From Thermodesulfobacteriota bacterium (lineage in GTDB: Bacteria; Desulfobacterota_D; UBA1144; Nemesobacterales; Nemesobacteraceae): a DNA stretch of 64,000 nucleotides. Positions 36,916 through 64,000 of the stretch are shown here, piece after piece. A model generated the notes under the pieces. The model saw nothing but the letters and a program-made list of their open reading frames with translations, ran no database searches and was not told the DNA's origin. The first letter of the stretch is position 1, and the number at the start of each line of letters is the position of its first letter. The stretch spans positions 1,153,732-1,217,731 of the forward strand of contig OZ242322.1 in assembly GCA_965208155.1 (NCBI GenBank), written 5' to 3'. A program made the translations under genes and the position numbers.

Positions 36916-36920
36916 ACCGA

Positions 36921-38963: not shown

Positions 38964-39054
38964 TCATATGCCGGAGGCTCTTGTTCCCTGTTCCGTCATT
39001 TGTTTTTTTCCGTGACTTCTTCTATCAGTGCCAGAAGATCATCTGAAACGCCGG
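38964..39054. repeat. Direct repeat copy A (~91 bp) covering the last ~19 codons plus the 3' flank of the 124-aa gene
   Basis: >90% identical to 44373-44464. Confidence 0.7.
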
Positions 39055-43293: not shown

Positions 43294-43308
43294 ACCGTAA
43301 GGATTTGG

Positions 43309-44073: not shown

Positions 44074-44372
44074 GAAAACAACCCTTTTTAAATTATAGTC
44101 GGTTTAACGATGTTACAAAACTCCATAAACTCCTTAAGTACTTGGTGAAGGTCGTTTAAATCTTCGTGCTTTTTTTCAAATCAGCCTCGGAAGGCGAGTC
44201 CGAAGAGGCTGATTTGAAACCGTTTCCTTGCCCTGATGCCACCTTCCTTCCGCCCTCCTTCTCTTGACCGTCTTTTCTCCTCTTAGTGCTACAACGCCAC
44301 CTTCGCCTTGAACTCTGGTGAATACGCCTTTGAGGCATTTGCGTAGTGGAGTATAGCTATACTGGGCAGGGA

Positions 44373-44464
44373 TCATATGCCGGAAGTCCCTTGTTCCCTG
44401 CTCCGTCATTTGTTTTTTTCCGTGACTTCCTCTATCAGTGCCAGAAGATCATTTGAAACGCCGG
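44373..44464. repeat. Direct repeat copy B (~92 bp): orphan duplicate of the 3' end of the 124-aa gene
   Basis: Encodes the same C-terminal ...DLLALIEEVTEKNK* but has no upstream gene body. Confidence 0.7.
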
Positions 44465-44601
44465 GTCTTTCGGGAAAATGTGAACCGCTCCCTCTGCCTG
44501 GAGCAATTAAAAGAGATTTTTTCTCTTTTAAATTGATTTTTAAGGGTTTTTATGTATATTAGCAGTATGTAATGAGTTGATATCGTATAAGGAGATGTCA
44601 A

Positions 44602-45924: not shown

Positions 45925-45999
45925 TGCCTCCGGGAAAACGGAGAAGATTCATCTAAATCACGCAAGGCTACGTGCCCGACATTGCATCCTCGGATTTTG

Positions 46000-46857: not shown

Positions 46858-46929
46858 GAGCTCTGCGAAGTCTGCCAGTTCCAGAATGTCCGCATCTGGA
46901 GACGGTAGGTGGGGAAGCTTGAACAGGAT

Positions 46930-48051: not shown

Positions 48052-48064
48052 CAGTTTTTCTCCG

Positions 48065-48958
48065 CTAAGCGATTTTCAGCAAAGTGTTTTCGTTTTGCCC
48101 CATGCTATATGACTGTGGAATATGGACGTTATCGGGCGCGATTATCAGTTCCCGCGCGAAATGCTTTACCTGTAAAGTATAACGGAGCGGCAGCAGGGCC
48201 ATCTTGCATTTACCGTAAAGCCCACGAACCAGATCGCTGTCGTCGTAGGACATGATCCAAGGCAATTTTTTCTGAGTGTGCATGTACTTCGCCAATACGT
48301 GATGGTCTTCCGGTTCATACGCGTTGAGGTAAAGTCTCCGGCCGTTGCTTACGTAGGGCGGATCCAAGTATACGAACACGTGTCCCCTTCTGTGTCCCTT
48401 TGGCAGGTGGAGCCTGAGGAAATCAACGGCATCTTCGTTAAACACTTCTATGCGCTCGCGGTGTTTGGCGAGCGCGAGCAAGCGTTTCGCAAGACCCTCG
48501 CGATTAAAACGAGCATCCATTTTCCATCTGCCTTCTTGCCCGAAGCCTCCGATCGGCCCGGCGCCCATCAATATCCCCGACCTGTTGGTGCGATTCATGT
48601 AGAAGGCCGCAAAACCCAGATCAAAGAGATTGTGCCGCCCGGGGCTGGCGCAGATTTCTCTCTGGTTTCTCCACTCCTTGATCGTTAACGGCACTTTGAT
48701 TACGCGTTGCGCGAAACGTTCGGGCTGCTCAAGGGCTGCGCGCCAGAACGCGTAAATGCAGGGGTCCGCGTCGTTTAATCGAATCTTTGAAACAACCCCG
48801 GCACCCAGCAGCGCCAGCGCCGCGCCCGCTCCTCCTGCGTAAGGTTCGAAATAGACGCATCCCCTCAAGTCGTTTAGATCAATAACGTCGGCCAGAAACC
48901 CGGAAAGCGCCGTTTTCCCGCCGGGATATCGCAACGGACTGAGATGTTTTTCAGACAT
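48065..48958 (-). CDS. Dam-family N6-adenine DNA methyltransferase (D12 class); start at the internal ATG (MSEKHLSPL...)
   Basis: LRYPGGK (motif I) and DPPYV (motif IV). The ORF-track start at 49051 would overlap traW. Confidence 0.85.
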   Translation of the reverse strand: MSEKHLSPLRYPGGKTALSGFLADVIDLNDLRGCVYFEPYAGGAGAALALLGAGVVSKIRLNDADPCIYAFWRAALEQPERFAQRVIKVPLTIKEWRNQREICASPGRHNLFDLGFAAFYMNRTNRSGILMGAGPIGGFGQEGRWKMDARFNREGLAKRLLALAKHRERIEVFNEDAVDFLRLHLPKGHRRGHVFVYLDPPYVSNGRRLYLNAYEPEDHHVLAKYMHTQKKLPWIMSYDDSDLVRGLYGKCKMALLPLRYTLQVKHFARELIIAPDNVHIPQSYSMGQNENTLLKIA

Positions 48959-49037
48959 ATCCTTCCTTTTCCCTAGTACTGAAGTATGCACTCTGACACT
49001 TGCCTGGTCAATTTTAAGGAACAAAATCGCCTCTATA

Positions 49038-49655
49038 CTATTGCAGGACAATCTCCCGCAGCCTGAGCTTTTTTCCCTCCTGAGTCACAAGCGACGGCAC
49101 TTTTTCAATCTTGAGCCTCCTGAGCATAAAAGGACTTGCCTTGTATACTGGTTGACCCGCAAGCAAGGAAGCTCTTCGGATATCACCGTCTGTGAGCAGC
49201 AGAATCGGGTTTTCACTTCTTTTATCTGCCTCCTCAAGCGCCCTTTTCACCTGGTCCTCCCTCAGCACCAGAATGCTTTTCGAAAGCGCCATGTGGTCAA
49301 GCGGATTCACGGCACCAGCGGGAAAAATCATCGCTCCGGTATGGTCGCGCAGCGGATTCCGCACATTCACCGAAGGGTCGACGTAACGTACCCGCTCAGA
49401 AGTGGCTGATGGGACGTCAAGAGAAACAAAAAAGTGCTGCGCCCAGGATTCCCGGACTTTTTTCTCCATGCTCCCCCGAAGCGCCGCCATTGAGATATCC
49501 CCCGCCTTTCTCCGCACGTAGGAAAGCATGTCCTCTTCCTCTATCTCGTAGAGGCGCCCGTGAACCCCGAGATCTTTCCCCGAGGCCGGCACCGAGTGGG
49601 ACTGGACAAAAAAGACCGAGGCTAGAACAATGGAAATCCACGCCCGACTATCCAT
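49038..49655 (-). CDS. traW: F-type pilus assembly protein TraW
   Basis: Signal peptide, KDLGVHGRLYEIEEEDM N-terminal motif; ~205 aa. Lies between trbI/peptidase and (in F) traU. Confidence 0.8.
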   Translation of the reverse strand: MDSRAWISIVLASVFFVQSHSVPASGKDLGVHGRLYEIEEEDMLSYVRRKAGDISMAALRGSMEKKVRESWAQHFFVSLDVPSATSERVRYVDPSVNVRNPLRDHTGAMIFPAGAVNPLDHMALSKSILVLREDQVKRALEEADKRSENPILLLTDGDIRRASLLAGQPVYKASPFMLRRLKIEKVPSLVTQEGKKLRLREIVLQ

Positions 49656-50116: not shown

Positions 50117-50462
50117 TCCCCTCTCCCCGGGCGGAGAGTTCTTCGAGCACCTCCCCGGTTATGTCTCTCCCGCCCCCGAGGACCGACTTTGCGTCAAGCA
50201 CGAGATATCCCTCTTTTTCATAATTGACAAGAACCTCGCCGAACCGCAGGAAAAACCGCCCGACCCGCTCCTCCGCATCCTCGCGCGACAGTTCCCCGCG
50301 AAGCACCCTTTCGAATATCCTTTTTTTCTCCTCTGAGATCACCGTCTCAAGATCTATGAAAACCACCTTTTCGCCCTTCTGCGAAACCCCGCATGAGAAA
50401 ACCCCCAAGACAGCCAGGGCCGCAAGCGCGGCCAGGAGAACCGAAACCCTGATCCCTTTCAT
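50109..50462 (-). CDS. trbI: TrbI-like small F-type transfer protein (position-based; weak sequence match)
   Basis: Small signal-anchored protein sitting between traC and traW exactly as F trbI. Internal ATG chosen to abut the traC stop. Confidence 0.45.
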   Translation of the reverse strand: MKGIRVSVLLAALAALAVLGVFSCGVSQKGEKVVFIDLETVISEEKKRIFERVLRGELSREDAEERVGRFFLRFGEVLVNYEKEGYLVLDAKSVLGGGRDITGEVLEELSARGEGNE

Positions 50463-52978
50463 CTTTTCCCCCGGGAAGTCTCGACGCACCGCTCTATGGC
50501 TTCTCGCACTTCCATTCCCTCCGATATGAATCCGTTAAGAAGCGAGACGTCGTCTGGGTTAGTGGTGTAGGTCCAGTAGGAAAAAGGGTCGACGACCAGG
50601 CGCCCGAGGCCCATGCCGCGCTCGCTGTTGTATATGAACACCTCTGAGAACTCCCCGGGGCGCGTAGAGAGCGTAGAGACAAGCTCCCCGAAGTAATCCC
50701 CGAGAAGAAGCTTTCCTCCCCTTTTTATCTCCTCGACGCTTTCCCCCTTCTGGCGGAGCATGAACATCCAGGCCGAGTTCTCAAGCACCGACTCCCCGAG
50801 GTCCCCCGCCCTGTAGAAGTCAAGCAGGCTCTGGGTCACGGAGACAAACGCGCCGTTATACTTCCGGGCTCTGCGGTACCCGTGCGCTATGAACTCCCCC
50901 GAGAACCCCCCGCCGAGAAGATCCCACGCCTCGTCTATTATCGCGAGCTTCCGCCGCTCGCGGCCCCCGAGGTACATCTCCCTCTCTATGTGCCAGATGA
51001 TCATCAGCACCACGACGGTCTGGAGCTCGGGCTTTGACTTAAGCTCCTCAAGCTCAAGCACGCAGAGGTCCCTCTCAAACGAGAGGTTTGACGGTCCCTC
51101 GAAAAACCGCCCGTACTGCCCGCGGGATGTGTAGGCGTAGAGCATGTGCGCAAGGTCCTCCGAGCGCCGCTTCGGGTCGGAGATCCCCGAGAGCGCCTCC
51201 ACGACGTCGTCTATCCGTGCCTCGGGGCCGCGGCGCTCCCACGCCTTCTTTATCGCCTCTTCGAGAAGCGATTTCCCGAGGTCACCTATTTTCTCGGACG
51301 GAGAGGCCATCTGGGCGAAAAGGGGCTTTAGCAGCTCCATGTCCTCGTCTATGTCCGTTATGCGGGAGAAGGGGTTAAGCGAGATCCCGCTTTTCTCGTC
51401 AAACACCACGAACTCCCCGCCCACAAGTCCGCAGAGCTTCTCATAGGAGCGGCCTATGTCTATCACGAACACCCGAGCCCCCTCCGAGAGATACCCGGTG
51501 ATCATGTCCGAGGTGAGAAACGACTTGCCCGAGCCCGACTGCGCGAACACCGCGCAGTTGTAGTTTGAAGCCGAGGCGAAAAGATCAAGCTTCATTATCT
51601 GTCCCCTCCTCGATATGAAGGTAAGCGGCCCCCCGCCCGTCCCCTTCCAGTCAGACATCACGGGAAGGATGGAGGCCCCGGCTGAGCTCTGCATGGTCAA
51701 GTTCCGCCTGAGAAGCTTTGTGAGGGCCGCCTCTCCGCCAAGCGGCAGGCTTTCAAGGAGAAGGGGAAGCACTATGTATCTCTCCTCTCTGAGGTCGAAG
51801 TTCCGCGCCCTCCATATTCCGGTCACCATCTCCCTTACGCGCTCCGCCTCCTCTGTGCTTCGGGTCCTGAGAAAGAGGCTGAGCGACCCCATTACCAGCC
51901 CCTCGTCCTCAAGGGCGTTAACCAGAAAATCGAAGTTCTCTGACTTTCTCCTGAGCCTCGGTATGAATCTCGTCACAAGCCCGAAGCTCTGCTGCTTCAC
52001 CACGGCGGCCTTGGCCCGCACTTCGGAGGCTTTTTTTCTCTCGGGGATTACGAACCCGGCCTGGAGAAAGAAGTACGCGGGCACCTGGGAGAGTCCCCGA
52101 AGCGGGTCTCCCAGCAGCTCGTGGAACTCATCAAGGGAGAAGTACTCGGGCATGGACGCGGGGGAGTATCCCCGAAGGCGCGCGTCCCCGAGCGAAATCT
52201 CCCCCGCCCCCACTTCCATCATCGTCTCGCGGTCTATTACCTGGTTTCTTATCTCGTCGCGCGGGTCGTAGGGCCCCCCGCCCGCCCGGTCGAGATAGTA
52301 GGGGTCATCGTACCAGCGCCCGTCGGGGTTAAGCGCCTCGCGGAGAATGAGGATCAGCTGCGCCGGGGGCAGGTCGCGGGGGTGAAGCTGCGCTGAGCCG
52401 AGAACCCCGGCCACGTTCGCCCCGAGCTTGCGGGCGCTTTCTGTGTGTTTCTCCCACTCCGTGTCCTTTTTCTCTGCGGAGCCGGCTGGGATCCTGACCG
52501 AAACCAGAAAGCGGAAGTCCCTCGCGGGAACCCCGACCCTCTCGCGCATCCCGAGGGTGTAAAGCCGCTTTCTCTCGGCCGTGATCTCCCGGCAGATGCC
52601 GCCCCGCCCCGATTCTTCCACGGGGAAAAACGGGGATATGACCTCGGAGGCAAACACGTGGAACTTAACCGAGGTCCCGGCCGGAAGCACCCGGTCGCCT
52701 AGCATTCCGCCCAGTATCCTTTTTGTGTCCTCCCCGGCGAAAAGAAGAGGGTTTATCTCCCACACAAACCCAGCCGACATGTCGGCAAGCACGTACATCC
52801 CGTCTTCCCAGGCCACGTAGGGAAGGTAGCGGGAAAGCGAATCCCTGGCCGCAAGATCCCGAAACCGCTCTTTCGCCACGCCCATCAGGGACCCTTCCCC
52901 GCTCCCCGAAGGCGCATTTCCCCGGGATAGCCCCCCGGGCGGCGGCCAAGCGGAGCTGTCTTTCCGCCGATTGTCCAC
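50459..52978 (-). CDS. traC: TraC (VirB4-family T4SS ATPase), F-type
   Basis: SRYLPY N-terminal motif; Walker A SGSGKS; 808-839 aa (an alternative start at 52885 overlaps the traV stop). Confidence 0.9.
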   Translation of the reverse strand: MDNRRKDSSAWPPPGGLSRGNAPSGSGEGSLMGVAKERFRDLAARDSLSRYLPYVAWEDGMYVLADMSAGFVWEINPLLFAGEDTKRILGGMLGDRVLPAGTSVKFHVFASEVISPFFPVEESGRGGICREITAERKRLYTLGMRERVGVPARDFRFLVSVRIPAGSAEKKDTEWEKHTESARKLGANVAGVLGSAQLHPRDLPPAQLILILREALNPDGRWYDDPYYLDRAGGGPYDPRDEIRNQVIDRETMMEVGAGEISLGDARLRGYSPASMPEYFSLDEFHELLGDPLRGLSQVPAYFFLQAGFVIPERKKASEVRAKAAVVKQQSFGLVTRFIPRLRRKSENFDFLVNALEDEGLVMGSLSLFLRTRSTEEAERVREMVTGIWRARNFDLREERYIVLPLLLESLPLGGEAALTKLLRRNLTMQSSAGASILPVMSDWKGTGGGPLTFISRRGQIMKLDLFASASNYNCAVFAQSGSGKSFLTSDMITGYLSEGARVFVIDIGRSYEKLCGLVGGEFVVFDEKSGISLNPFSRITDIDEDMELLKPLFAQMASPSEKIGDLGKSLLEEAIKKAWERRGPEARIDDVVEALSGISDPKRRSEDLAHMLYAYTSRGQYGRFFEGPSNLSFERDLCVLELEELKSKPELQTVVVLMIIWHIEREMYLGGRERRKLAIIDEAWDLLGGGFSGEFIAHGYRRARKYNGAFVSVTQSLLDFYRAGDLGESVLENSAWMFMLRQKGESVEEIKRGGKLLLGDYFGELVSTLSTRPGEFSEVFIYNSERGMGLGRLVVDPFSYWTYTTNPDDVSLLNGFISEGMEVREAIERCVETSRGKR

Positions 52979-53376
52979 CGTCCCTCACCCGAGACCACGT
53001 ATGTGTACTTGCCCGAGTGAAAAACGCCGCGGCCATCCTGCCACGGGGCTATCCAGAGACGTATTACGGGCGGGGGGACGTAAACGGGCATCGCTTCCTC
53101 CGTCCGCGCTGCCTTTTTCTCCTCCGCCCGCCCGCGCGTGTTTTTTCCCGCGCGAAACGCCCCGCCCTTAAGAAATCTTCTCCCCTCGCCCGCGCTTTTT
53201 TTCTCCTCGGGGGTCATCCCCGGCTCCCCGCTTCCCCGCTCTGCCTCGGCGTAGACCCGGGAGACGCTTTTGCACGAGTGGCCCTCCAGGACGGGGCAGC
53301 CGTAGCGCGACGTCCCCCCGGCGCAGCCGGAAAGCAGCAGGGCGAAGAGTGAGAGAGCGAAGGCTGACTTCCTCAT
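52885..53376 (-). CDS. traV: TraV lipoprotein (F-type T4SS outer-membrane core)
   Basis: Lipobox LLSGC; paired Cys; PVIRLWIAPWQDGRG motif. Confidence 0.7.
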   Translation of the reverse strand: MRKSAFALSLFALLLSGCAGGTSRYGCPVLEGHSCKSVSRVYAEAERGSGEPGMTPEEKKSAGEGRRFLKGGAFRAGKNTRGRAEEKKAARTEEAMPVYVPPPVIRLWIAPWQDGRGVFHSGKYTYVVSGEGRWTIGGKTAPLGRRPGGYPGEMRLRGAGKGP

Positions 53377-54536
53377 CCCCCCTCCTTTGCGTAAGCGGTA
53401 CTTCTCGGGGCAAGTTCTGTCCCCTCGGTTATTATCACGTCGACGCGGCGCCCCGCGTCTATCTCTATTACGGGAAACACCTCCTCTGCGAGTTCGAGGT
53501 AGTATTCGGCAAGCAGCCTTCCGGCTTCCCCCGCTCCCCCGCCAAGGCCGGTCTTAACGAGGTCGCGCGATGAGTTCGAGCTCACGGTAAACGTTCCCCC
53601 CGCGACCACCCCGGTGGTCGAATTCGAGCTCTCGACCGCTTCGCCGAACCCCGAGGCGAATCCGGAGAGGATTGCGCGCGAGAGCATCTTTCCCTGTTTT
53701 GAAACGAGCCGCCCGCGGATTCCCGTCTTTCCGTCCTCCCCGGCCACGTATCCCTTTATCTTGGTGTCTATAACGTCCCCCGAGCGAAGCACGCAGGCTA
53801 TTCTCTCAAGCCTTACGTACGCCCTCTCGCTTGCGAGCTGTCCGTAGCCGGCCCCCGTAATGTGGCAGCGCGCTATGTCAAGGAGCCTCCCGCCGGGCAG
53901 GCGGGAAGGTTCCACAAGGTATATCAGCACGGGGTGGGGGTTTCGCGCGGCGCCGGTCGCGGTTGGGGCGTCAAGGCCGCTTAGAAGCACGCCGGGGACA
54001 AAGCTTCCGGAAGGAATCCAGTTAAGCAGCGCCGTTTGCGCGGTACCCACGTCGCCCACATCGCCCCCGATGGGGGAGAAAACCCGTATTTGCGCAGGCT
54101 CGGGCGCAGGCGGTGGAGGGGGCGGGGCGGCGGGAGGGAATCCCGCTTCGGGCGGGGTTTCGTCCGCGGGAGGCGGGTAGGGGTGGCGTTCCCGCGGCTC
54201 TAGCTCTCCTAGCATGGCTGAGACGGCCTCAAGCGTTTTTTTTATCTCTCTCTGCTCTGTCTCTATCATCCCCAGGCGCCGCTCTCCCTCTATTCGCCAT
54301 TTCTCCCGGGCGAGATCCACTCCCCGCAGGATCTTTATGCTCCCCCGCGGCTTTTTCTCCCCCAGAAGCCCCTTTTCCTCTCCGCCAAGCAGAAGCAGAA
54401 AAAGAGCTACTACGAAAAGCCCCGAGAGAAGCACCCCCGCCGCGAGCACCTGGCGTTTTCTCCCGGCGAAGATTTTCCTGATCCTGGCGATCATCTGGGA
54501 GGCTCCTTTTTCGTAACCACGAAAACCCGCCCCCAC
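53373..54536 (-). CDS. traB: TraB (VirB10-like), Pro-rich linker
   Basis: N-terminal TM, Pro-rich region, and a C-terminal VirB10 beta-barrel pattern (start possibly 54494). Confidence 0.8.
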   Translation of the reverse strand: MGAGFRGYEKGASQMIARIRKIFAGRKRQVLAAGVLLSGLFVVALFLLLLGGEEKGLLGEKKPRGSIKILRGVDLAREKWRIEGERRLGMIETEQREIKKTLEAVSAMLGELEPRERHPYPPPADETPPEAGFPPAAPPPPPPAPEPAQIRVFSPIGGDVGDVGTAQTALLNWIPSGSFVPGVLLSGLDAPTATGAARNPHPVLIYLVEPSRLPGGRLLDIARCHITGAGYGQLASERAYVRLERIACVLRSGDVIDTKIKGYVAGEDGKTGIRGRLVSKQGKMLSRAILSGFASGFGEAVESSNSTTGVVAGGTFTVSSNSSRDLVKTGLGGGAGEAGRLLAEYYLELAEEVFPVIEIDAGRRVDVIITEGTELAPRSTAYAKEGG

Positions 54537-55183
54537 TCCCCCGGCCCGAGCGAGGCGCGCTCCATGCCCACCGCCACAGTTTCGGGGGAAACAAGGAACA
54601 TGCTCTCACTAAGCGCGACGGTCCCGGAGCCCGAGTTTCTTACAACGTAGAGCGTGGCCAGAAAAGGGGGCGCCGCCGCCTGCGCTCCCCGCGCGACGTG
54701 AAGCGAGCGGGAGAGTTTCTGCTCCTTCTTTTCCCCGGTCGTTGAGTTGTCCCGGGCGAGTGAGAGCACGAGATCGGTTATGGCTTCCTCGTAGGGAAGG
54801 GCTTGCGTGCCTCCGGCCGGGCCGGGGGAGGGTGAGTCCCTGTCCCTGATTATAGCGGTTCGCGAAGGCCCCTCCTCGGGCGAGAGCAGAAGGGTGAGCC
54901 TTCTTTTTTCGGTAAGGATTATCAGTTCCGCCGGCTCTTCGGTCCTAACGAGCACGGAGCGGCCGATTATCTTAACGTCCATTGCCCCGCTTGAGGAAAA
55001 AGCGTTTGTTACGGTTTCAGGGAGCTCTATTCTGTTTGTGTCGGTGCGCGATACCTCAAGCGACACGGGTTTTTCTTGCGGCGCTCCCCCGAGATCTATG
55101 GTGAGGGCGGCCGCGGCCTGGGCGAAGGCAAAAAGCGCGGCGGCGAAGCCGGCAAGGGTGCGCGGGAGAAAATCAGTATTCAC
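54491..55183 (-). CDS. traK: TraK (VirB9-like secretin-type core protein), F-type
   Basis: Signal peptide; 230 aa; sits between traE and traB. Confidence 0.7.
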   Translation of the reverse strand: MNTDFLPRTLAGFAAALFAFAQAAAALTIDLGGAPQEKPVSLEVSRTDTNRIELPETVTNAFSSSGAMDVKIIGRSVLVRTEEPAELIILTEKRRLTLLLSPEEGPSRTAIIRDRDSPSPGPAGGTQALPYEEAITDLVLSLARDNSTTGEKKEQKLSRSLHVARGAQAAAPPFLATLYVVRNSGSGTVALSESMFLVSPETVAVGMERASLGPGEWGRVFVVTKKEPPR

Positions 55184-55763
55184 CGCCGCCCCCTGCCTCT
55201 TCGTCTTCTACAAGCTCCGTTACGAGCGGGCGGTTAAGGGCTCCGAGAGAGAAGCGGATACGGTACGTAACCTCCCTCTGGCCGGTCACCACGTTTCCGA
55301 CCACCCTTACGCGCTGCCCCGAGACCGCCACGACCGCCCCTTCTTCCTCTACTGCCACTGTTTTCGGGAAAAACGCCTGGGCGATCCCGCTTGCCTTTAT
55401 CTCTTTTGACTTTTGGAGCAGAAATCCCGAGATGGGGTCGTAGCTCTCGGGGTGTACGTAGAGGAGAAACTGCCTTATGTTAAAGTCAACGCTCTCTGCG
55501 GTGAAGGAAGCGACGAAGGGAAGCAGGCCGAGCGCCCACTGCTCAGTGTAGGCAAGAGACGCCCCGCCCGCCGCGCTCATGGTGAAGTCCTTGTGCGCGT
55601 ACTCGGGGACGTGGACGTGCACGGTTGTCCGCTCAGAGAGCCTTTTCATGTGGCAGCCCTGAAGGGCCACTGTTACGCAGAGCGCCCCCACGGCGAAGCG
55701 GAGCAGCCCGTTTTCCCGGGCGAGGTTAAGCCATCTTTCCCTGAACGTGCGTATGAGCATCAC
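55173..55763 (-). CDS. traE: TraE (VirB8-like) F-type
   Basis: N-terminal TM; ~196 aa; position after traL. Confidence 0.75.
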   Translation of the reverse strand: MMLIRTFRERWLNLARENGLLRFAVGALCVTVALQGCHMKRLSERTTVHVHVPEYAHKDFTMSAAGGASLAYTEQWALGLLPFVASFTAESVDFNIRQFLLYVHPESYDPISGFLLQKSKEIKASGIAQAFFPKTVAVEEEGAVVAVSGQRVRVVGNVVTGQREVTYRIRFSLGALNRPLVTELVEDEEAGGGGEY

Positions 55764-56026
55764 TCGCAGAACCTCTCTTTTCTGCTCTCGGGCCTCACCC
55801 CCGAGAGGCCGTACCAGTAGGCGAGGTGAACCAGGAAGGCGCTTCCCCGCCCGGACTTCAGGCGCTCAAGCAGCCAGGCAAGCGCGAACCCCGCGAGCAG
55901 CCCGCCGAGTATCTGGCCCGAAAGAGCCCCGATCCCGAACGCCCCCGAGAAAAGCGCCACCTCGTCAATTTCCCACCAGAATATCTGCGGGGGGTCGTCT
56001 ATGTACCTCGGGATTTTTGTTCTCAT
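55760..56026 (-). CDS. traL: TraL (VirB3-like) F-type
   Basis: IPRYIDDPPQIFWWEIDE...HLAYWYGL matches TraL. Confidence 0.8.
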   Translation of the reverse strand: MRTKIPRYIDDPPQIFWWEIDEVALFSGAFGIGALSGQILGGLLAGFALAWLLERLKSGRGSAFLVHLAYWYGLSGVRPESRKERFCE

Positions 56027-56386
56027 CTAGAATGTTCCCGTGGCTATTCCCTCTATCAGCGCCGGGCCGAGTGAGACCACAAGCGCCACCGCTATTCCCA
56101 TTAGCGCCGGGAAAAGGGTCTGGCGCATGATGGACGCCCCGAGACCCACTATAAAGGTGCAGAGCGCGAGCAGCCGTCCCAGGTAGCCCGTCGACCATCC
56201 CTTGACCTTTGTGTATATGCCCACGAACTCCGTGCCCGTGGTTCCCCCGAGCGCCCACTCGGGGTAAAGAAGCACGAGGCACAGGACCGCGAGAAAAACG
56301 GCCGCCGCGGTAGCGGAAATCCTTGCGGATGTTCTCATATGGCTATCCTCCTTGTAAGATTGCCTGTGTGCGTGAGAATGCGGCAC
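56027..56386 (-). CDS. traA: TraA-like propilin (two hydrophobic segments; long leader)
   Basis: ~100-119 aa with a leader plus two hydrophobic helices. Position is immediately upstream of traL, as in F. Confidence 0.5.
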   Translation of the reverse strand: MPHSHAHRQSYKEDSHMRTSARISATAAAVFLAVLCLVLLYPEWALGGTTGTEFVGIYTKVKGWSTGYLGRLLALCTFIVGLGASIMRQTLFPALMGIAVALVVSLGPALIEGIATGTF

Positions 56387-56436
56387 ATGTCTTTTTTCAT
56401 GTCACATCACCTGAGGCCGCTCCGCCTGTCTTTCCC

Positions 56437-56793
56437 CTACGCCTCGTCCACGGCGCCCCATACGTCGACCACCGAGCGGAACCACTCCTTTGAAATAGGC
56501 TTCTCAGGAAGCATCTCCGCGCCGAGGCTTATTATCATCTCCGCGATTTCCTCCGGGGTGCGGTCCTCCCTCTTCGCGTTCTCGCTAAGCAGGGAGTAGT
56601 GTTTCTCCGAGACGAACACCGTGCCTTCGGCGGGCTCCTCGCCCCCGTTGTTGCATATGTAGTCCATCTCTATCAGCATCTCGAGATACTCCCCCGAAGA
56701 GAGCTTCCTTTTTCGGGATTCAGACTCAAGCTGCCGGTACGCGTTTTTCGCGATAACCACCGCGATGTTTTTTTCGTGGGTTTCTTTTTTCAT
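56437..56793 (-). CDS. Tandem ribbon-helix-helix protein, TraY-like (two RHH repeats)
   Basis: Two beta-alpha-alpha repeats (KNIAVVIAKNAYRQLE... / EKHYSLLSENAKRE...EIAEMI). Position upstream of traA, as traY in F. Confidence 0.4.
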   Translation of the reverse strand: MKKETHEKNIAVVIAKNAYRQLESESRKRKLSSGEYLEMLIEMDYICNNGGEEPAEGTVFVSEKHYSLLSENAKREDRTPEEIAEMIISLGAEMLPEKPISKEWFRSVVDVWGAVDEA

Positions 56794-56853
56794 ACGCTTA
56801 TCTCCTTTATTTTTTGATTTAGTCAGGACACGTACCGCCCGTTTGAGTTTAAA

Positions 56854-58323
56854 TCATTTCTTTTTTCCCCGAACCCGACACGGCGAGAAGGCGGTTATAC
56901 GCCGAAGCGAAGCGCCCTTTCTTTTTTCAAGCTCAGAGAGCCCCGCCCCGAACGCCTCCGCGAAAACCGGTATCCAGAATCCGCCCCTCGTAACCTTCTT
57001 CCCTCCGCAGGTGTAGTTCCAGAAAGACGCGTAGTATCCCTCGCCCACCCCATCGCCCACCCAGTTTCGGGACTTAAGGGAGTTTGTGACGAGAAGCTTC
57101 GCGCGAAGCTCCCCCGCCCTTGAGGAGTCAAAGAACCTCATGTCCGCTATGTTCTCTTTTTCAATGTGCTCCCGCACGCCGTCAAAAAGGTAGTGGGGGC
57201 AGACGTACACTATTCCGTTTGTGGAGGAGATGGCGCGGGCGAAGGGTTTTTTCTCGAGAGCCTCCACGTTTATCGCGGGTCCTATGTGGCCCTTGAGTAT
57301 CCGGGGGATGTCGCGTACGAGCCACTCTGGGGGCTCCGTGTCTTCTTTGTCTCTGTGTGCCCGCGGGTTTTTCCGGGTGCCCGAGAATTCCTCCTCCCGC
57401 GCCGCCATGTCCGCCTTCTTTAGGCGTTCGAGCAGCGAGTCGGGGTTGCTTGTGGCCCTGTGATGGTTCCTTACCGCGTCTATGACCGAACGAAACAGAA
57501 GCGCTCCATCCTCTCCCCCGCACTCCGTGGCCCACGCACAGAGAGCGCGGGCTGACGCCGCAGCGTGATCATCCTTTACGTAGCGCCCGTCTCCGCCCCG
57601 GCGCAGGTGCTCCATTTTTCCGACATCGTGGGCGAGGGCGGCTATCATGTGCTTTCCGTAAAGGAGCCTTTCGGTGTGGACCGAGTCGTGTATTTCCCCC
57701 ATGCGCCGGGCGACGCGAAGGGAGTGGTCAAGCAGGGTTACCCGCGAGAACCTTTTTGTGGTAGGAGCGAATGTGCTTTTTCCGTCCCCCGAGACTACGC
57801 TTGAGCAGAGGCCGTGGCGGTCAAGTTCGGTGAGGACTCTTTCCAGAAGCGCGAGTTCTCCGAGGCGCGAGAAAAGACGGCTCCGCGGCTCTATCACCTC
57901 TTCCCAGAAAGCGCGGGTGAGGGGATGGGTGAAGGATGGGGAGTCTGCGGCTTTCGAGTCAGAAAGCACTGGGACCCCCGAATCAGAGAGTACAGGGACC
58001 CCTGAGTCAGAAAGTATCGGGACTTCCGCATCAGAGAGTATCGGGATCTTAGAGTGAGAGAGTACAGGGGCCCCCGCGTCGCCTCGGAGCCAAAGAGCCT
58101 CTGCCAGGGCGTCTATGGTGCTCGGCTCAGTCGGGGGCCGGTTTTTTCCCTCACTTGTGGTGAATTCCACTGCCATGGGGCCGTCGCCGCTTTTTCTTTT
58201 CGTCGCAAGCGCGAAAAGCGCCGCGCCGAACGTCGTGCAGAGAAGCGAGAAAAGGGCCGCCGCCTCCCAGCTCACCGCCACATGGGGAAGATATTTCATT
58301 TTAGCTTCTCTCCTCTTGCTCAT
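56854..58323 (-). CDS. HD-domain phosphohydrolase-fold protein with an N-terminal TM helix and a (VPxLSDx)n repeat; candidate MobH-type relaxase or accessory protein
   Basis: H...HD...H...D pattern (LLDHSL / LAHDVGK / DDHAAAS). Translationally abutted to the T4CP gene. Confidence 0.55.
   Translation of the reverse strand: MSKRREAKMKYLPHVAVSWEAAALFSLLCTTFGAALFALATKRKSGDGPMAVEFTTSEGKNRPPTEPSTIDALAEALWLRGDAGAPVLSHSKIPILSDAEVPILSDSGVPVLSDSGVPVLSDSKAADSPSFTHPLTRAFWEEVIEPRSRLFSRLGELALLERVLTELDRHGLCSSVVSGDGKSTFAPTTKRFSRVTLLDHSLRVARRMGEIHDSVHTERLLYGKHMIAALAHDVGKMEHLRRGGDGRYVKDDHAAASARALCAWATECGGEDGALLFRSVIDAVRNHHRATSNPDSLLERLKKADMAAREEEFSGTRKNPRAHRDKEDTEPPEWLVRDIPRILKGHIGPAINVEALEKKPFARAISSTNGIVYVCPHYLFDGVREHIEKENIADMRFFDSSRAGELRAKLLVTNSLKSRNWVGDGVGEGYYASFWNYTCGGKKVTRGGFWIPVFAEAFGAGLSELEKRKGASLRRITAFSPCRVRGKKK
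57955..58074. repeat. Five tandem 24-bp in-frame repeats encoding (S/A)(G/E)VP(V/I)LSD octapeptides inside the HD-domain gene
   Basis: GAGTCAGAAAGCACTGGGACCCCC / GAATCAGAGAGTACAGGGACCCCT / ... visible as near-identical units. Confidence 0.7.
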
Positions 58324-59672
58324 CAGCTCTTTATCTCCGGGAACCGTATTTCCTCACACGGCGCGACGTCAAGCGTTCTGCCCCTGTATATGCCGTCGAA
58401 GGTAAAGGCGAAAAACTCCCTTCTCGGAAGCCTCATGAAACTCTCGGGCGGAACCCTGCTCTCCTCCATCTCCCGGACGCTGAGACCCCCGCCGAGGCTC
58501 ATTATGGGGGAGAACCTTTTTCTCATCCCCGCAAGCCGCGAAGCCCACGCGGCAGTGTCGGGGTCGTTTACTCGGAAGATAACCTTGGTGTTCGTGTTGT
58601 CGAGGATCTTTCCCGCGTACGCCGGGCCGAGTTCGGCGACCAGGTCCTGGCGGCTCTGGGTCAGCATGTGAAGCCACACCCCCGCTCCTCCCGCCTTGTT
58701 GAAAAGATCGTCTATTCCGAAGTAAAGAACGTTTGACGCCTCATCGGCGTAAACGGCAAGCGGCGGGTCGATCCTGCGGTGAGAGGCAAGCACCCTGCCG
58801 ACGAAGCTTTGTACCATGGAGAGCAGCACCCGCGCCATTATGTGGGCAGTTTTCCTGGTGAGAAGCGATCCCGTCTGCACAACGAGTATCACCCTCTCTC
58901 CCGCCTCGAGGCGCTCAACAAATCGGTTCGCGGTGTCTTTTCCGATGATTTCTCCGACGGAGCCCGAAGAAAGCGACGTTATAACGGTGCGGAGGCTTGA
59001 GGAAACCTTGGAGAAATAGTCCTGGGGAGAGGAGAGTATCTGGTCTAGGTTCGTCAGGATCTCCTCCGCTTCGGGCCCCTCTATCTCGGCTACCTGGGCG
59101 CGGAGGCCTTCAAGCTCCTTGTAGCCCATGTTCTCCTTTATTTTTTTGAACGTGAAGGTGGGCCGCTCCCCGAGAGATTTCGCGATCAGCATGAGCGACT
59201 GCACCACAACAAGCGTCACCTCGTAGGCTATGTTCGAGTAGAATTCCTCGCGGGTCCTTACGCCCGAGACCACGTGGTTAACGATCTCCTCGGGCATGAA
59301 GTAGTGGGAGAGGGGATCCATCCTGACCGAGTAGCGGGGATGGACGGGGGAGAAGAAGATAAGATCGTCCTCCCGTCCCGCCCCGCGGGCCGCCGTGACT
59401 ATCTTTGAGAAAATGGCGTTATCCCCCTTGGGGTCTATCCAGAGGATGCTTCGCCCAGCGTGTATGTCGTGCTCTATCATGGCTTCCGCGAGGCGGGTCT
59501 TTCCGCTTCGCGTTGCGCCCATGGTGAATATGTGCCCCTCGCGGTCCGCGTCGGGAACGGTTATCGGCGCGGGTTTCGCTTCGGGGTCCGAGTCAAGCGC
59601 CGTGCCCTCTCCCAATGCGCACCCCGCGGGCGCGGGAATATCTCTCGGCTTTCTTGCGCGAAGTCCTATCAA
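58323..59672 (-). CDS. traD: Type IV coupling protein (TraD/VirD4 family), soluble form lacking N-terminal TM
   Basis: GATRSGKT Walker A; DEASN Walker B-like; 449 aa. Confidence 0.8.
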   Translation of the reverse strand: MIGLRARKPRDIPAPAGCALGEGTALDSDPEAKPAPITVPDADREGHIFTMGATRSGKTRLAEAMIEHDIHAGRSILWIDPKGDNAIFSKIVTAARGAGREDDLIFFSPVHPRYSVRMDPLSHYFMPEEIVNHVVSGVRTREEFYSNIAYEVTLVVVQSLMLIAKSLGERPTFTFKKIKENMGYKELEGLRAQVAEIEGPEAEEILTNLDQILSSPQDYFSKVSSSLRTVITSLSSGSVGEIIGKDTANRFVERLEAGERVILVVQTGSLLTRKTAHIMARVLLSMVQSFVGRVLASHRRIDPPLAVYADEASNVLYFGIDDLFNKAGGAGVWLHMLTQSRQDLVAELGPAYAGKILDNTNTKVIFRVNDPDTAAWASRLAGMRKRFSPIMSLGGGLSVREMEESRVPPESFMRLPRREFFAFTFDGIYRGRTLDVAPCEEIRFPEIKS

Positions 59673-59878
59673 GAGGCCCCTCTCCCGGGTTTTTTATTTG
59701 CTTTTTCTGCTTGCATCTGTTTCCTCTTTGTGCCCGTTTTTTGCTATCTGAAATACAATGTATTACAATTAAGAGCAAATGTCTAGCATTTTTTCGGGAA
59801 ATTTTTTGGGACGGCAGGTCCGGCGGATTCTCCGAGCGGGGAGATCTTCGATTTTTTCCGCCTTATATATGAAGGAGA

Positions 59879-60553
59879 GTGGTTATGAGCGAGGGTCGGG
59901 GAGGTTTCGTTCACGTATCGCCTTCTCCCCACGCGGCGCCGCGGGGAATCATAGACGCGATATCTGAGATACAGCAGTACCACATAATAGAGCGCACGGG
60001 GCAGGACATACCTTCTGATTTCCTGACGATGAGGGGAATGCTCACTTTTTTCATGGTGGGTTTCCGTAGCGGCTTCTGGGAGGGGGCGTTTTTGGGGCTT
60101 CTGCTTCCGCTCGGGTGGGGAGTGTGGGAGGAGGTGATCCCGGCTTTCGGGGGGACGGCTGATCTTTTCGGGAAGTGCCTTATTTTTCTTTTCGGGTGCG
60201 GGATAAGTCTCATGATGACGGTTGTGCTCGGGGGGATACTCGCCGGGTACTACGGGGGAAATCTCACGAGAAAGGCGGTTAACTCGCTTGTGTGGGGCCG
60301 GACGGCAAGTCTTGTGGCGAAGGGGCTTCTGGTATTCTGCGTGTTTAACCTGCTTGTGTTTCTGATGAGTCCCGGGAACGTGTATTTTATCTGCGAGGCG
60401 CTTCGGGGGGTTATCGGGAACCCGGCGTCTTTTTACTGGGGGATAATGGAAATGAAGGAGCCTCTTCGGAAAAGCGCCGCTACGCAGCTTTACCTCTCCC
60501 CCGTGCTTAGCCTCGTACCCTTTGTCACGCTTCGGCTTTTCGGGCGGGGATGA
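59879..60553 (+). CDS. Hypothetical polytopic membrane protein (224 aa)
   Basis: 5-6 predicted TM helices; no motif. Confidence 0.45.
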   Translation: MVMSEGRGGFVHVSPSPHAAPRGIIDAISEIQQYHIIERTGQDIPSDFLTMRGMLTFFMVGFRSGFWEGAFLGLLLPLGWGVWEEVIPAFGGTADLFGKCLIFLFGCGISLMMTVVLGGILAGYYGGNLTRKAVNSLVWGRTASLVAKGLLVFCVFNLLVFLMSPGNVYFICEALRGVIGNPASFYWGIMEMKEPLRKSAATQLYLSPVLSLVPFVTLRLFGRG

Positions 60554-60849
60554 GCGCGTGTCGGGGCGGCCGCTTGCGCCGCTGGTTTCTATATTTTTTG
60601 CGTGGTTTGGGGTTTCGCGCGGCTGTGTGTCGGAGGAATTTTTCTCTTGACATGAGCGCGCTTCTGGGTTAGTGTTAAGAAAGTATTGAGGAGGAGTGTG
60701 ATTTTCCGTTAAGGAAGAAAACGCTTGAAGCCGGATTGTTTTTGTAGTAAACTTGGAACAAGTTTGATTATGCTATAAATCCGTTTTTAGGAATTTGGGG
60801 CGTGATCGTTTATTTTGGAAATATAAATTTTTACAGGAGGTAAGGAGAG

Positions 60850-62331
60850 ATGATTCAAGCCAGATGGCTTATAATATTTTTTGCCGTTCTCGGCATGTCG
60901 GTTCCGTCATTCGCGATAGACTGGTCGCTTGGCGGATTCCCGAGCTACATGAGGACGAGAGCGCGTTTTATTGACAACGCCACTTTGTTGAATGATGGAA
61001 GGATTAGTGTTGTTGACACGACGCTCAGGATTACCCCGCAGCTGGGCCTAAGCGACGCGGTTACGGTGCGTGCCCAGGTTGATGTTGCGAGTAACATGGT
61101 ATGGGGCGGTGTTACCAACGGCTTCTTTGGAGACTATGACAGTGTAGTCCTGTCTGACCTTAGGCCGGATGATCGCTTCAGAGGAGCCATTTTGACCGGT
61201 GATAAAACTTTTGACCAAGATTTCGGATTCTTCAACGTGCGCATGCTTCACGCTGACATAGTTCTTCCGAACAACCTAGGTTTCGTGAGGATAGGGCGCC
61301 AGCCTTTTGACTGGGGTCTTGGAATCCTCGCAAATGGCGGACACGATCCGCATTCTGATCTTGGTTTCGTAGTTGACAGGTTGCTTTGGTTGAAATCTTT
61401 TCCGGCTGGAGCTGGAACCTTCACATTGGTTCTCGTATCTGATGTATTCACCCAGGGCGCTTCTCTGTTTGGTGGAGACACGGGCACAGGTTATGACATA
61501 CTTGCCGCAGCGGGTATCTACAACCAGCAGATGGGAGATGTGAATGTGACCATAGGGGGATATGGATTCCCTTACCTGCATCAAGAGAATATAGCGGGTG
61601 TTTGGGACGTTGATCGCACTGCTCTTTACGCTGGGTTGCTAGTACTTAAGTCCGCTAACTGGAGTTTCACATATGAGGTTCAGATGTTTGGAGGTGGAGA
61701 GGTAGATCTTAACGATGCAGCTGGAACCTCAATTGAGCTTGACTACGCATTTGATATGGCAGCACGCCTTGAGCTTATGCCTTCAATGATGGCCCAGGTA
61801 AGCGCGATAGGTCTGGAAGCTGGTTGGGCGCAGGGAGACGATGGCAGTACTCCTCTTACAGTTGAAGGTAATGCCCTTCCGTTCAGCCCAGCTTATAACG
61901 TAGACAACCTTCTTTTCAAGCATGTCGTTCCGACTCTTTACAACATAGAGGGAAGCGTTATAAACGCCATATATGCCAAGTTGTACGCGAACATGAGGCT
62001 TTCCGATAACCTCGGATTCACTCCTCAGGTTCTTATGGCTTGGAATGATGAGACGAATGCAGTTTCAGCTTTTGACGCTGCCCCCGGTTCATTCGGTTCA
62101 GCCAGTGATGTTGAAAAGTACCTTGGAACCGAGATTGAGGGAACGCTCAGCTGGACTCTTCATCCGGGCGTAAACCTTGACTTTATCGGAAGCTTGGTGC
62201 TTGCCGGAGACGGTCTTAAGGATCTGCTTGAAGCTCACGCAACTGCCAATGGAGTCACTGCTACCGCCGATGACACGATCTGGGCATTCCAGACAAGGCT
62301 GATGGTCTACATTGACCAGTTCATTAAATAG
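60850..62331 (+). CDS. Outer-membrane beta-barrel protein (porin-like)
   Basis: Signal peptide (IFFAVLGMSVPSFA), alternating amphipathic beta-strands, aromatic C-terminal region; AGGAGG RBS. Confidence 0.55.
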   Translation: MIQARWLIIFFAVLGMSVPSFAIDWSLGGFPSYMRTRARFIDNATLLNDGRISVVDTTLRITPQLGLSDAVTVRAQVDVASNMVWGGVTNGFFGDYDSVVLSDLRPDDRFRGAILTGDKTFDQDFGFFNVRMLHADIVLPNNLGFVRIGRQPFDWGLGILANGGHDPHSDLGFVVDRLLWLKSFPAGAGTFTLVLVSDVFTQGASLFGGDTGTGYDILAAAGIYNQQMGDVNVTIGGYGFPYLHQENIAGVWDVDRTALYAGLLVLKSANWSFTYEVQMFGGGEVDLNDAAGTSIELDYAFDMAARLELMPSMMAQVSAIGLEAGWAQGDDGSTPLTVEGNALPFSPAYNVDNLLFKHVVPTLYNIEGSVINAIYAKLYANMRLSDNLGFTPQVLMAWNDETNAVSAFDAAPGSFGSASDVEKYLGTEIEGTLSWTLHPGVNLDFIGSLVLAGDGLKDLLEAHATANGVTATADDTIWAFQTRLMVYIDQFIK

Positions 62332-62367
62332 AAACAAAACCAAATCAAAGCTAACAAAGCTTGAATG

Positions 62368-62402
62368 AAGCGGGCTCCCTCACAAAGGTTGCCCGCTTTT
62401 TT
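62368..62402 (+). terminator. Rho-independent terminator after the OMP gene
   Basis: AAGCGGGC...GCCCGCTT stem followed by T6. Confidence 0.6.
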
Positions 62403-62509
62403 CATGCCCTTTTTGTGGTGAGGGTGGGGTTTTCAGGTGGGGTGAGGCGGGGATTTTCCGACTTTTAGAGATTGTTTTTTCCGGTTCATAAAAAGGATGG
62501 TTCCATGTT

Positions 62510-64000
62510 ATGCAATCACGAGACGGAAGCGCCCAGAATTTCGAACTAACTGAGGATGTCGTTAAACAGGCTTATCTCTATCTCAAGAGTTATGCCTACT
62601 ATGAGAACATCAATTTCTTTCTCAAACAGAAAATCGCCGAGTTTGAATGCGACCCTGAGTTTAACGAACGAATCAAGGAATTGGCCCGCTTGCTTGCCCG
62701 CGGAAGAATTTCGCAAGGGCGCAAATTCAAGGGATGGATTGAGGATGTCAGTTACCGGATATTGCCCAAGTCCGTCAGCCGTCCTGAAGATAAAGACGAT
62801 AACGGCGAGCGAAACGAACTTTTCATAAGCAACGTTACTACCTCGTCCAGCTACCGCGCGGACAAGGTGAACTACTTTATCACCGCCCCCGTCGAGTTGC
62901 ACGTAGTTGAGGTCCTATGGTGTCTGGTTGTCGGCCCGCTTGTGGAAGAGGAACTGAGGGAATGTTGCTTCGGATACCGCATGGATGACATGGCGAAAAA
63001 ATTCTGCTCGCAGCCCGTAGGACGCCAGAATTCCCAGGCTTTGTTCAAACACTATATGCACCAGTACAGCTCGTGGCGCGACCGGGCGCTCGAGATGGCC
63101 AAGGAAATCTCTGAGAGCGGAGAAGACGTGGCTTTGCTGTCCCTTGATCTTAAATTCTACTACTACAACATCGATCTGAATTTCGAGAAGATCAAAGACA
63201 GGGTCAAAGAAGGTTTCCGGAATGACGACCGGCTTCGCGGCATCGCGCTTGCGCTGACTGATTCTCTCGAAAAAATATTCTCCGCCTACCATAAGAAAAC
63301 AGTTCCGCTTTTAAGCTCCACGCATCCAGGATGCGAGGGCAGAACTGGCTTGCCCGTCGGGTTTCTTTCCTCATCTATACTTGGCAACTGGTACCTCGCC
63401 GGGTTTGACAGGGAGATTCTTGAGACCGCCAGACCGGATTACTACGGTCGCTATGTGGACGACATCCTGATGGTGTTCAGAAACCCGGGGACTGATCATG
63501 GAACCGACCCTCCCGTAAAATCCTTTGTCAGAAGATTTCTCGGCGAACAACTTAAAGAGGTGGAGCCTGGGGATGGGGAAAAGGATTCCGCTCCATGTTT
63601 CTATATTAAAGTTGACGATAACCTCCTTCCGGTTCAGCAGGACAAGCTCATACTTTATCTGCTCGACCGGGAACACAGCAGGGCGGTGCTGGAAGTGTTC
63701 CGCCAGGAGCTTCAGGAACGAAGCAGCGCGTTCAGATTTCTGCCGGGCGAGGATGTTGAAAGGGAACTTGACATATTCGCGTACGACATCCTCTACGAGG
63801 GTTCGCATAACAAGCTGCGTAGCATCGTGGGTCTTGCGGAGAATGAAACGGAACTGGCGAGTTATCTCGCAAGGCATATCATTCTGCACAGGCTTTGCGA
63901 AACGGACAAAAAAGATTCGGTGCTCCCGCAGCTCAAGCTCTTCTTTAAGGGAAAAAACGCTCTCCGGTTCAGCCGCCTGTGGGAAAAAGTCTACCAGTAC
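62510..64000 (+). CDS. Reverse transcriptase (5' part, ≥497 codons, no stop before the window end), non-intron, Abi/UG-like
   Basis: RT motif 2 (ITAPVELHVVEVLWCLVVGPL), A (LLSLDLKFYYYNIDL), B (LPVGFLSSSILGNWYLAGFD), C (YGRYVDDILMVF). ~90-aa N-terminal extension and a ~60-aa insert between motifs 2 and A. Not in the ORF track because the frame runs off the window. Confidence 0.8.
   Translation, partial: MQSRDGSAQNFELTEDVVKQAYLYLKSYAYYENINFFLKQKIAEFECDPEFNERIKELARLLARGRISQGRKFKGWIEDVSYRILPKSVSRPEDKDDNGERNELFISNVTTSSSYRADKVNYFITAPVELHVVEVLWCLVVGPLVEEELRECCFGYRMDDMAKKFCSQPVGRQNSQALFKHYMHQYSSWRDRALEMAKEISESGEDVALLSLDLKFYYYNIDLNFEKIKDRVKEGFRNDDRLRGIALALTDSLEKIFSAYHKKTVPLLSSTHPGCEGRTGLPVGFLSSSILGNWYLAGFDREILETARPDYYGRYVDDILMVFRNPGTDHGTDPPVKSFVRRFLGEQLKEVEPGDGEKDSAPCFYIKVDDNLLPVQQDKLILYLLDREHSRAVLEVFRQELQERSSAFRFLPGEDVERELDIFAYDILYEGSHNKLRSIVGLAENETELASYLARHIILHRLCETDKKDSVLPQLKLFFKGKNALRFSRLWEKVYQY

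Follow-up and report, generated by a model that had tools for sequence, protein, structure and literature searches.

The window analyzed here is a stretch of 64,000 nucleotides (nt) of contig OZ242322.1 from a Thermodesulfobacteriota bacterium (assembly GCA_965208155.1), and its right-hand end carries the 5' half of a gene for a reverse transcriptase (RT) that is assigned by its sequence to the UG5 family, in class 3 of the UG/Abi RTs. The window probably ends about halfway through a single-gene anti-phage module, in which the RT would be fused to a nitrilase (the UG5-large type) and which seems to be cargo of low guanine-cytosine (GC) content beside an F-type conjugation cluster on a Candidatus Dadabacteria chromosome. 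The gene is an ordinary further member of a known defense family and nothing new in kind. An initial annotation of the window had already described a non-intron RT, as a candidate defense-type RT of the UG/Abi lineage, next to a transfer region. Both points hold, the former through the UG5 assignment and the latter through the set of transfer genes from TraE to the coupling protein that was identified beside it.

Assignment of the reverse transcriptase to the UG5 family

From the ATG at 62510 the reading frame is free of stop codons up to the end of the window at 64000, and this ATG and its flanks are kept in three related contigs. When the RT was classified against profile models of defense RTs, as the initial annotation had proposed, PADLOC returned RT_UG5-nitrilase (7.1e-126, 419 bits) and RT_UG5_small (9.8e-124, 412 bits), both far above the next family, Drt1a (1.6e-14). 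UG5 is a member of class 3 of the UG/Abi RTs, which is defined by an associated nitrilase or phosphohydrolase domain (PMC9226505). The score of the general Pfam model RVT_1 was just under its cut-off (27.3 vs. 29.6 bits), and the identification as an RT therefore rests on the UG5 models. Matches to the NCBIfam models of Drt3a, Drt2, retron, and group II intron RTs scored far under the respective cut-offs in every case. By profile search, the nearest solved structure was that of DRT1 (9yfd, E = 2.4e-17), which is the closest structurally characterized relative. Among the matches listed by Foldseek against the PDB there were only generic RTs, namely those of a diversity-generating retroelement (DGR), G2L4, DRT9, DRT2, and AbiA, with template modeling (TM) scores of 0.3-0.45; DRT1 (9yfd) was not among them and is perhaps absent from that library, which covers releases up to 8 April 2026.

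The catalytic RT motifs are all intact, as the initial annotation had noted for motifs 2, A, B, and C, and D213, GLPVG, and YVDD can be read from the translation (Table 1). In an alignment of 62 family members, the residues W137, Y186, W189, D213, P282, D300, R314-D318, and S406 are invariant, and every family-invariant residue is present in the visible RT half. The YVDD residues are also kept in DRT11 and DRT1. The AlphaFold2 model of the visible RT part has a mean predicted local distance difference test (pLDDT) score of 89.5 and a predicted TM score (pTM) of 0.89. The long N-terminal extension noticed earlier measures about 80 amino acids (aa), which the model folds into a confident four-helix unit (helices 15-32, 36-47, 51-63, and 71-78). 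Likewise, the insertion of about 60 aa between motifs 2 and A is real and conserved family-wide. Both the extension and the insertion hold invariant or near-invariant residues across the family, and they are hallmarks of the family that are not peculiar to the window copy. Beyond YVDD, the open reading frame (ORF) continues for 179 aa to the window edge, in agreement with the earlier figure of more than 150 aa.

A nitrilase in the same gene of the nearest relatives

A database homology search returned 95 relatives, of which the four nearest (L001 with protein P0060, L002, L003, and L004 with protein P0012) are 68-80% identical to the window protein; for the L003 RT the identity to the window RT is 68%. 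A further homology search, of genome and metagenome contigs, returned only relatives that are 35-37% identical. In all four nearest relatives, the part of the gene beyond the RT matches the RTasNitrilase model and also the UG5-nitrilase models in their C-terminal half. The corresponding genes span L002:1810-4878 and L003:5977-9049, and the conceptual gene of L004 spans 4800-7867, or about 1,022 codons. The nitrilase residues Glu (in PELS), Lys, and Cys (in CFE) are invariant across the nearest relatives, the E. coli UG5-large proteins, and DRT11. Because all four nearest relatives carry the nitrilase in the same gene as the RT, the window gene is very probably a UG5-large gene that encodes an RT-nitrilase fusion of about 1,020 aa. 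The initial annotation had placed any downstream effector gene outside the window. The effector does lie outside, but by homology it would be a fused nitrilase and not a separate gene.

On the 3' side, the homology of L004 to L001 and to L003 breaks off at the stop codon or no more than 31 nt from it, and only in the L002/L004 pair (97% identical) does homology run about 230 nt further. No transmembrane ORF was found 3' of the gene in L001, L003, or L004. Since no flanking RNA or partner gene is conserved in this clade, the ORF alone is the unit of inheritance.

Directly 3' of the closest RT-nitrilase relative, the segment L001:2355-11302 is a dense defense island that encodes two FRG-domain/TPR proteins, an ApeA-NTD/HEPN protein, a PD-(D/E)XK-like protein, a KAP NTPase, and a SIR2_2 protein. 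In L002, the RT gene is followed by genes for HicB, Fic, and a nucleotidyltransferase (NTase).

The region upstream of the gene

The upstream gene ends at 62331 and is separated from the RT gene by an intergenic region of 178 nt, which includes an intrinsic terminator. None of 200 shuffled sequences folded as well as the terminator hairpin, which is kept in L002 and L004 and separates the transcript of the porin-like gene from the RT gene. The initial annotation had placed the start of the RT feature at 62405. A G-rich noncoding leader after the terminator is indeed found there, but 62405 is the start of this leader and the gene begins at 62510. The synteny of L002 and L004 with the window extends from the preceding gene into the RT, with a DNA identity of about 80%, and the G-rich run is missing from both at the homologous position. 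In its place, a shorter and unrelated spacer is found in L002, and this short spacer recurs in L004 together with an insertion of about 620 nt. The G-rich spacer is strain-specific and lies outside the RT system. A role of the run as a G-quadruplex was also considered and dropped, as the window contains 18 comparable G4-like motifs and the run is not conserved.

The 57 nt that follow the G-rich run (the proximal leader) are probably the translation-initiation region and possibly a promoter too. Before the ATG, L003 shares with the window only TCATAAAAAGGA. No sigma-70-like site was detected by a promoter scan of the + strand upstream of the RT gene, and a tRNA scan found none.

The insertion in L004 (L004:4087-4710, ena:ERZ28763718:ctg82218), at the position homologous to about 62403 of the window, is an ORF-less group II intron of about 620 nt. 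It is matched by the Rfam families RF02001 (144 bits) and RF01998 (52.8 bits) and, just under the cut-off of 40 bits, by RF00029 (39.7 bits), and it sits right after the T-run of the terminator, between the porin-like gene and the UG5 RT. Class C bacterial introns insert right after intrinsic terminators.

Alternative explanations

Two other readings concern the kind of RT. The first is an RT of the DRT2, DRT3, DRT9, or retron kind that is templated by a noncoding RNA (ncRNA), for which the G-rich leader (62405-62509) would supply the template or scaffold RNA. A 107-nt G-rich noncoding leader does follow directly after the terminator, several other UG families use an adjacent ncRNA, and the RT-ncRNA structures of DRT2 and DRT9 appear among the Foldseek matches. 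This reading is nevertheless very improbable, as L002 and L004 lack the G-rich block, the fold energy of the leader shows no excess stability over shuffled sequences (z = +0.74), and the Drt2 and Drt3a profile scores are weak. Rfam gave no match at E <= 1 in 56000-64000 and none at gathering score in the whole window, and a repeat search of 56000-64000 found neither retron-type (msr/msd) inverted repeats nor direct repeats of the template and variable repeat (TR/VR) type of DGRs. Furthermore, the homology to L003 is confined to the segment from 24 nt upstream of the ATG to the stop codon. No co-located ncRNA was seen when the DRT11 locus was analyzed by RNA-seq (PMC13436386), and class 3 enzymes polymerize without a template (PMC13275509). 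An upstream structured RNA of the msr/msd or DRT-ncRNA kind, as proposed in the initial annotation, is thus not supported, and the folding and repeat searches that it had suggested turned up nothing retron- or DGR-like within 56000-64000. The probability of the second reading, in which the RT would belong to a mobile element (as a group II intron maturase, a retron RT, or a DGR RT), is negligible in our judgment. Weak generic matches to such RTs exist, namely TIGR04416 at 20.2 bits, retron St85 at 27.5 bits, and group II, DGR, and G2L4 RTs in Foldseek at TM scores of 0.3-0.5, and the intron of L004 lies just upstream of its RT. The two profile scores, however, are far under the respective cut-offs of 300 and 235 bits, the Rfam searches just described found no intron RNA domains, and the intron of L004 is an independent insertion that is lacking in the window and in L002. 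A group II intron RT or maturase was rejected on the TIGR04416 score and the missing Rfam intron match, which agrees with the earlier remark that no intron context is visible. A retron was rejected on the St85 score, the lack of suitable inverted repeats and of an Rfam match, and the unstructured leader. As to a DGR, no direct repeats longer than 26 nt involve the RT region within 56000-64000, the side downstream of the RT being outside the window, and by profile the RT matches UG5 and not DGR.

The remaining alternatives accept the UG5 assignment and ask what lies beyond base 64000, where the nitrilase half and the stop codon would be found; several observations here weigh against a functional RT-nitrilase fusion. 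The fusion is known from the relatives only, and the visible 497 aa score nearly equally with the UG5-large and the UG5-small model. The main alternative is accordingly a UG5-small system, in which the RT would end after about 630-650 aa and a second ORF downstream would encode the nitrilase. Among the database relatives at 35-40% identity, many are proteins of this type with about 650 aa. In all relatives above 65% identity, however, one frame encodes both RT and nitrilase (or one gene does, if homopolymer indels are discounted), and the UG5-small representatives P0034 and P0028 are just 37% identical to the window protein, which leaves a UG5-small system improbable. Decay of the gene was weighed as well, since 12 of the 15 other ORFs of the window are exact entries of the protein collection, all from one contig of 2,441,076 bp, and a homology search of that collection did not return a product of this RT gene at an identity of at least 90%. 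The gene may be disrupted, annotated as a pseudogene, or uncalled past base 64000, or the entry may be missing for technical reasons. In addition, the RT-nitrilase genes of all three long-read relatives (L002, L003, and L004) are frameshifted, and that of L002 also has an in-frame TAG at codon 19. We consider it unlikely, though worth keeping in mind, that the window copy is a relic with a break just past the window and not a working defense system: its 1,491 visible nt are intact. Where L002 and L004 differ by indels, these fall in runs of G, A, or CT, as errors in long-read consensus sequences typically do, and at both of the indel sites that it covers the window is in frame; an error in the consensus is therefore no less likely than decay, the two not being distinguishable here, and a decay of the whole clade was set aside. 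The reading as a working anti-phage module is further weakened by the modest identity to tested proteins, which is 24% for DRT11 (residues 128-412) and 45% for the UG5-large protein of E. coli; the antiviral activity of the window protein is a prediction. It also draws on DRT5S and DRT5L, which we read as UG5-small and UG5-large because the authors list both as class 3, the naming not being defined in the available text of PMC13275509.

Proposed mode of action

For the reading as a single-gene UG5-large RT-nitrilase, our computations cover the family of the RT half, its catalytic residues, the Glu-Lys-Cys signature of the relatives' nitrilases, and the lack of a conserved flanking RNA or partner. 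The functional steps would be carried over from other class 3 enzymes. DRT1, DRT5S, and DRT5L synthesize DNA without a template, also with RNase A present, and the product is covalently attached to the protein (PMC13275509). By analogy, the window RT would need no RNA template to make short, semi-random single-stranded DNA (ssDNA); one of its own side chains would serve as the primer, and this DNA would remain covalently attached to the RT. The DNA adduct may then drive the assembly of oligomers or filaments, in which the nitrilase would be formed and yet held closed and dormant. A phage replication factor would disturb the dormant state and release the nitrilase; in DRT1, the trigger is a T4 5'-3' ssDNA helicase. 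Once released, the nitrilase might hydrolyze an essential amide- or amine-bearing metabolite, and the expected outcome would resemble abortive infection, with the infected cell being halted at low multiplicity of infection. No ncRNA would be required in this model.

Experimental support for such a course of events comes from related systems. In DRT11, the catalytic residues of both the RT and the nitrilase are needed, protection is seen only at low multiplicity of infection, and no transmembrane partner is needed (PMC13436386). The dependence of phage resistance on both activities was shown for DRT11 (PMC13436386) and for DRT1 (PMC13275509). A UG5-large system of E. coli E101 was validated earlier, as cited in PMC9226505.

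A possible priming residue can be named. In DRT1, Ser402 is the priming residue (PMC13275509). In the window protein, the invariant S406 of the motif ERSSAFRFLP is kept in DRT11 (ERASEWRAMP) despite an identity of only 24%. S406 is found 88 residues downstream of YVDD; for Ser402 of DRT1 this distance is 77 residues. Purely as a hypothesis, we put S406 forward as a candidate protein-priming residue of the UG5 family. The residue lies in a stretch where the model is of lower confidence (pLDDT 69 for residues 401-410). No sequence alignment of the S406 region to the Ser402 region of DRT1 was obtained, as the profile alignment stops at DRT1 residue 372, and a search with the C-terminal segment of the window protein alone found nothing relevant.

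Comparison with characterized systems

In sequence, the window gene is closest to the UG5-large RT-nitrilase of the E. coli P2/P4 hotspot (PADLOC PDLC02995; P0056, locus L007), and in layout to the minimal DRT11 system. The E. coli protein belongs to the same RT family (the identity of 45% holds over residues 172-497), has the same motifs including ERSSAFRFLP, and carries a fused C-terminal nitrilase, a trait that it shares with the close relatives of the window gene; both genes are found in mobile-element cargo. The hosts differ, being a Thermodesulfobacteriota lineage on the one hand and Enterobacteriaceae on the other. The E. coli locus also differs by a 229-aa protein with one N-terminal hydrophobic segment, whose gene lies directly 3' of the RT-nitrilase gene and overlaps its stop codon, whereas L001, L003, and L004 have no partner ORF in this place. 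This partner was reported to be required in the E. coli system (PMC9226505). A transmembrane partner gene (clusters 85/1858) directly downstream is found in a minority of the UG5-large members and is not required for DRT11.

DRT11, a UG5-large system of Sinorhizobium meliloti RMO17 pSymA (PMC13436386), combines RT and nitrilase in one polypeptide without a transmembrane partner, an arrangement which for the window gene would follow from its relatives. Further likenesses are YVDD together with the conserved Ser of ERxS, a location on a conjugative element among toxin-antitoxin genes, and the lack of an associated ncRNA. DRT11 has been tested by experiment, whereas the window gene is known from sequence, and the low identity between them places them in different sub-clades of UG5. 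DRT1 (UG1; structure by cryo-electron microscopy, PMC13275509) is of the same class, likewise has an RT with a C-terminal nitrilase, and supplied the mechanism proposed above, in which template-free, protein-primed DNA adducts control a nitrilase. It differs in belonging to another UG family (see the Drt1a score above), in the greater length of its protein (1,229 aa), and in the Ser402 region, which cannot be aligned. The UG5-small systems, finally, consist of an RT of about 650 aa and a separate nitrilase of cluster 249. Their RT is homologous over the 497 visible aa (37% identity to P0034), and they differ from the nearest relatives of the window gene in that the nitrilase is a separate ORF and not fused.

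The window thus adds a divergent member, probably of the UG5-large type, to a known family, from an uncultured Thermodesulfobacteriota lineage (Candidatus Dadabacteria) and from cargo adjacent to conjugation genes. This location fits the spread of class 3 defense RTs on mobile elements, and the minimal single-gene layout of the gene and its close relatives agrees with the template-free, protein-primed model of the class. S406 offers a concrete candidate residue for the UG5 priming site. This hypothesis and the weakly supported idea of a gene cassette (below) are the points that look forward; otherwise the gene raises no new question.

Genomic neighborhood

On the - strand, the window contains a gene set for F-type conjugation, that is, a type IV secretion system (T4SS), which is interrupted by about 14 kb of cargo genes (35333-49051). 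This cargo block encodes HipA, an AbiEii nucleotidyltransferase toxin, AAA_15/21 ATPases, a DruA-N/Tn5-like transposase, a DUF1828/1829 protein, a ParB-like protein, and a D12 adenine methyltransferase. The RT gene, which adjoins this T4SS with its HipA, AbiEii, and AAA_15/21 cargo, is thus found in a mobile and defense-related context. The coordinates of the genes and of the features in and around the RT gene are collected in Table 1.

Table 1. Features of the window discussed in the text, in order of position (aa numbering refers to the RT protein).
Feature	Position	Strand	Remarks
TraG_N	26714-29716	-	
TraH	29723-31123	-	
TraN	31911-33104	-	
TraU	33693-34682	-	
TraC	50459-52978	-	
TrbI/TraB	53373-54536	-	
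TraK	54491-55183	-	
TraE	55173-55763	-	
HD-domain protein	56854-58323	-	Cas3-HD-like
Coupling protein	58323-59672	-	
224-aa membrane protein	59879..60553	+	81% identical to ORF L004:1420-2088
493-aa secreted TIGR04551-like protein (porin-like)	60850..62331	+	TIGR04551 1.5e-24, under cut-off
Stretch after the stop codon of the porin-like gene	up to 62366		
Intrinsic terminator of the porin-like gene, hairpin and T-run	62367-62402	+	-27.1 kcal/mol, z = -4.9
G-rich run GTGGTGAGGGTGGGGTTTTCAGGTGGGGTGAGGCGGGG	62415-62452	+	single occurrence in the window
Proximal leader, 57 nt, A-rich stretch and ribosome-binding site TCATAAAAAGGA	62453..62509	+	about 85% identical in L002 and L004
Ribosome-binding site AAGGA	62493-62497	+	12 nt 5' of ATG 62510
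UG5-family RT gene, 5' half	62510..64000	+	497 of about 1,020 codons; stop-free frame, PADLOC
Parts of the RT gene half: N-terminal helical extension; RT fingers and palm (motifs 1, 2, A, B, C); start of post-palm helical region	within 62510..64000		
Motif 1, RILPK	aa 83-87		read from translation
Motif A, LSLDLK, catalytic Asp D213	codon 63146-63148	+	invariant in 62 family members
Motif B, GLPVG	aa 280-284; L-P-V-G codons 63350-63361	+	read from translation
Motif C, catalytic site YVDD	aa 315-318; codons 63452-63463	+	invariant in 62 family members
S406 in ERSSAFRFLP	codon 63725..63727	+	invariant in 62 UG5 proteins

The GC content of the RT gene is 50.7% and that of the porin-like gene 50%. 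Because these values of about 50% differ from the 59-61% of the tra genes, they point to a separate origin of the RT and the porin-like gene as cargo. The GroEL protein encoded at 8868-10508 is 94-97% identical to proteins from metagenome-assembled genomes of Candidatus Dadabacteria, a class of Thermodesulfobacteriota, and from this match the element is judged to be chromosomal and akin to an integrative and conjugative element.

The 493-aa TIGR04551-like protein has an N-terminal hydrophobic signal segment and is a probable outer-membrane protein. Linkage of its gene with the RT is seen in the three closest loci and not in L003, L005, or L006. The 224-aa membrane protein had no PADLOC, Pfam, or NCBIfam match. 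It was examined as a counterpart of the transmembrane partner of UG5/UG1 systems and rejected, as BLASTP showed no similarity to the E. coli partner (L007:2575-3264) and PADLOC gave no match. Together with the TIGR04551-like gene and the RT, the 224-aa gene forms a block that is shared with L004 at about 80% DNA identity, and the left flank of this block differs between the two (genes for the coupling protein and the HD-domain protein in the window vs. DUF3800 in L004). Such a conserved block with a differing left flank would fit an envelope-linked cassette of three genes (the 224-aa polytopic protein, the TIGR04551-like protein, and the RT-nitrilase), in which the upstream membrane proteins would replace the downstream transmembrane partner. 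We regard such a functional unit as improbable, given that the RT lies in its own terminator-delimited unit, that L003, L005, and L006 are without both upstream genes, and that the 224-aa protein is unrelated to the UG5 transmembrane partner of the E. coli locus.

Some further observations concern the transfer region and its surroundings. The N-terminal part of the gene for the HD-domain protein contains a 24-nt tandem repeat at 57951-58080 (four to five copies, about 71% identity), which encodes octapeptides such as PILSDAEV, PILSDSGV, PVLSDSGV, and similar ones. In the cargo block, a 756-aa ORF with a DruA N-terminal domain and Tn5-type transposase DNA-binding and dimerization domains (39708-42913) directly follows a 300-aa fragment of an AAA_15/AAA_21 ATPase, which may be a defense ATPase gene that was interrupted by the transposase. 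Finally, a TnpB gene (OrfB_IS605 with a Cas12f-like TNB domain) is located at 16030-17226. Its 90% cluster has three members from the same 2.44-Mb contig, and this IS605-family element is therefore present in multiple copies in this genome.

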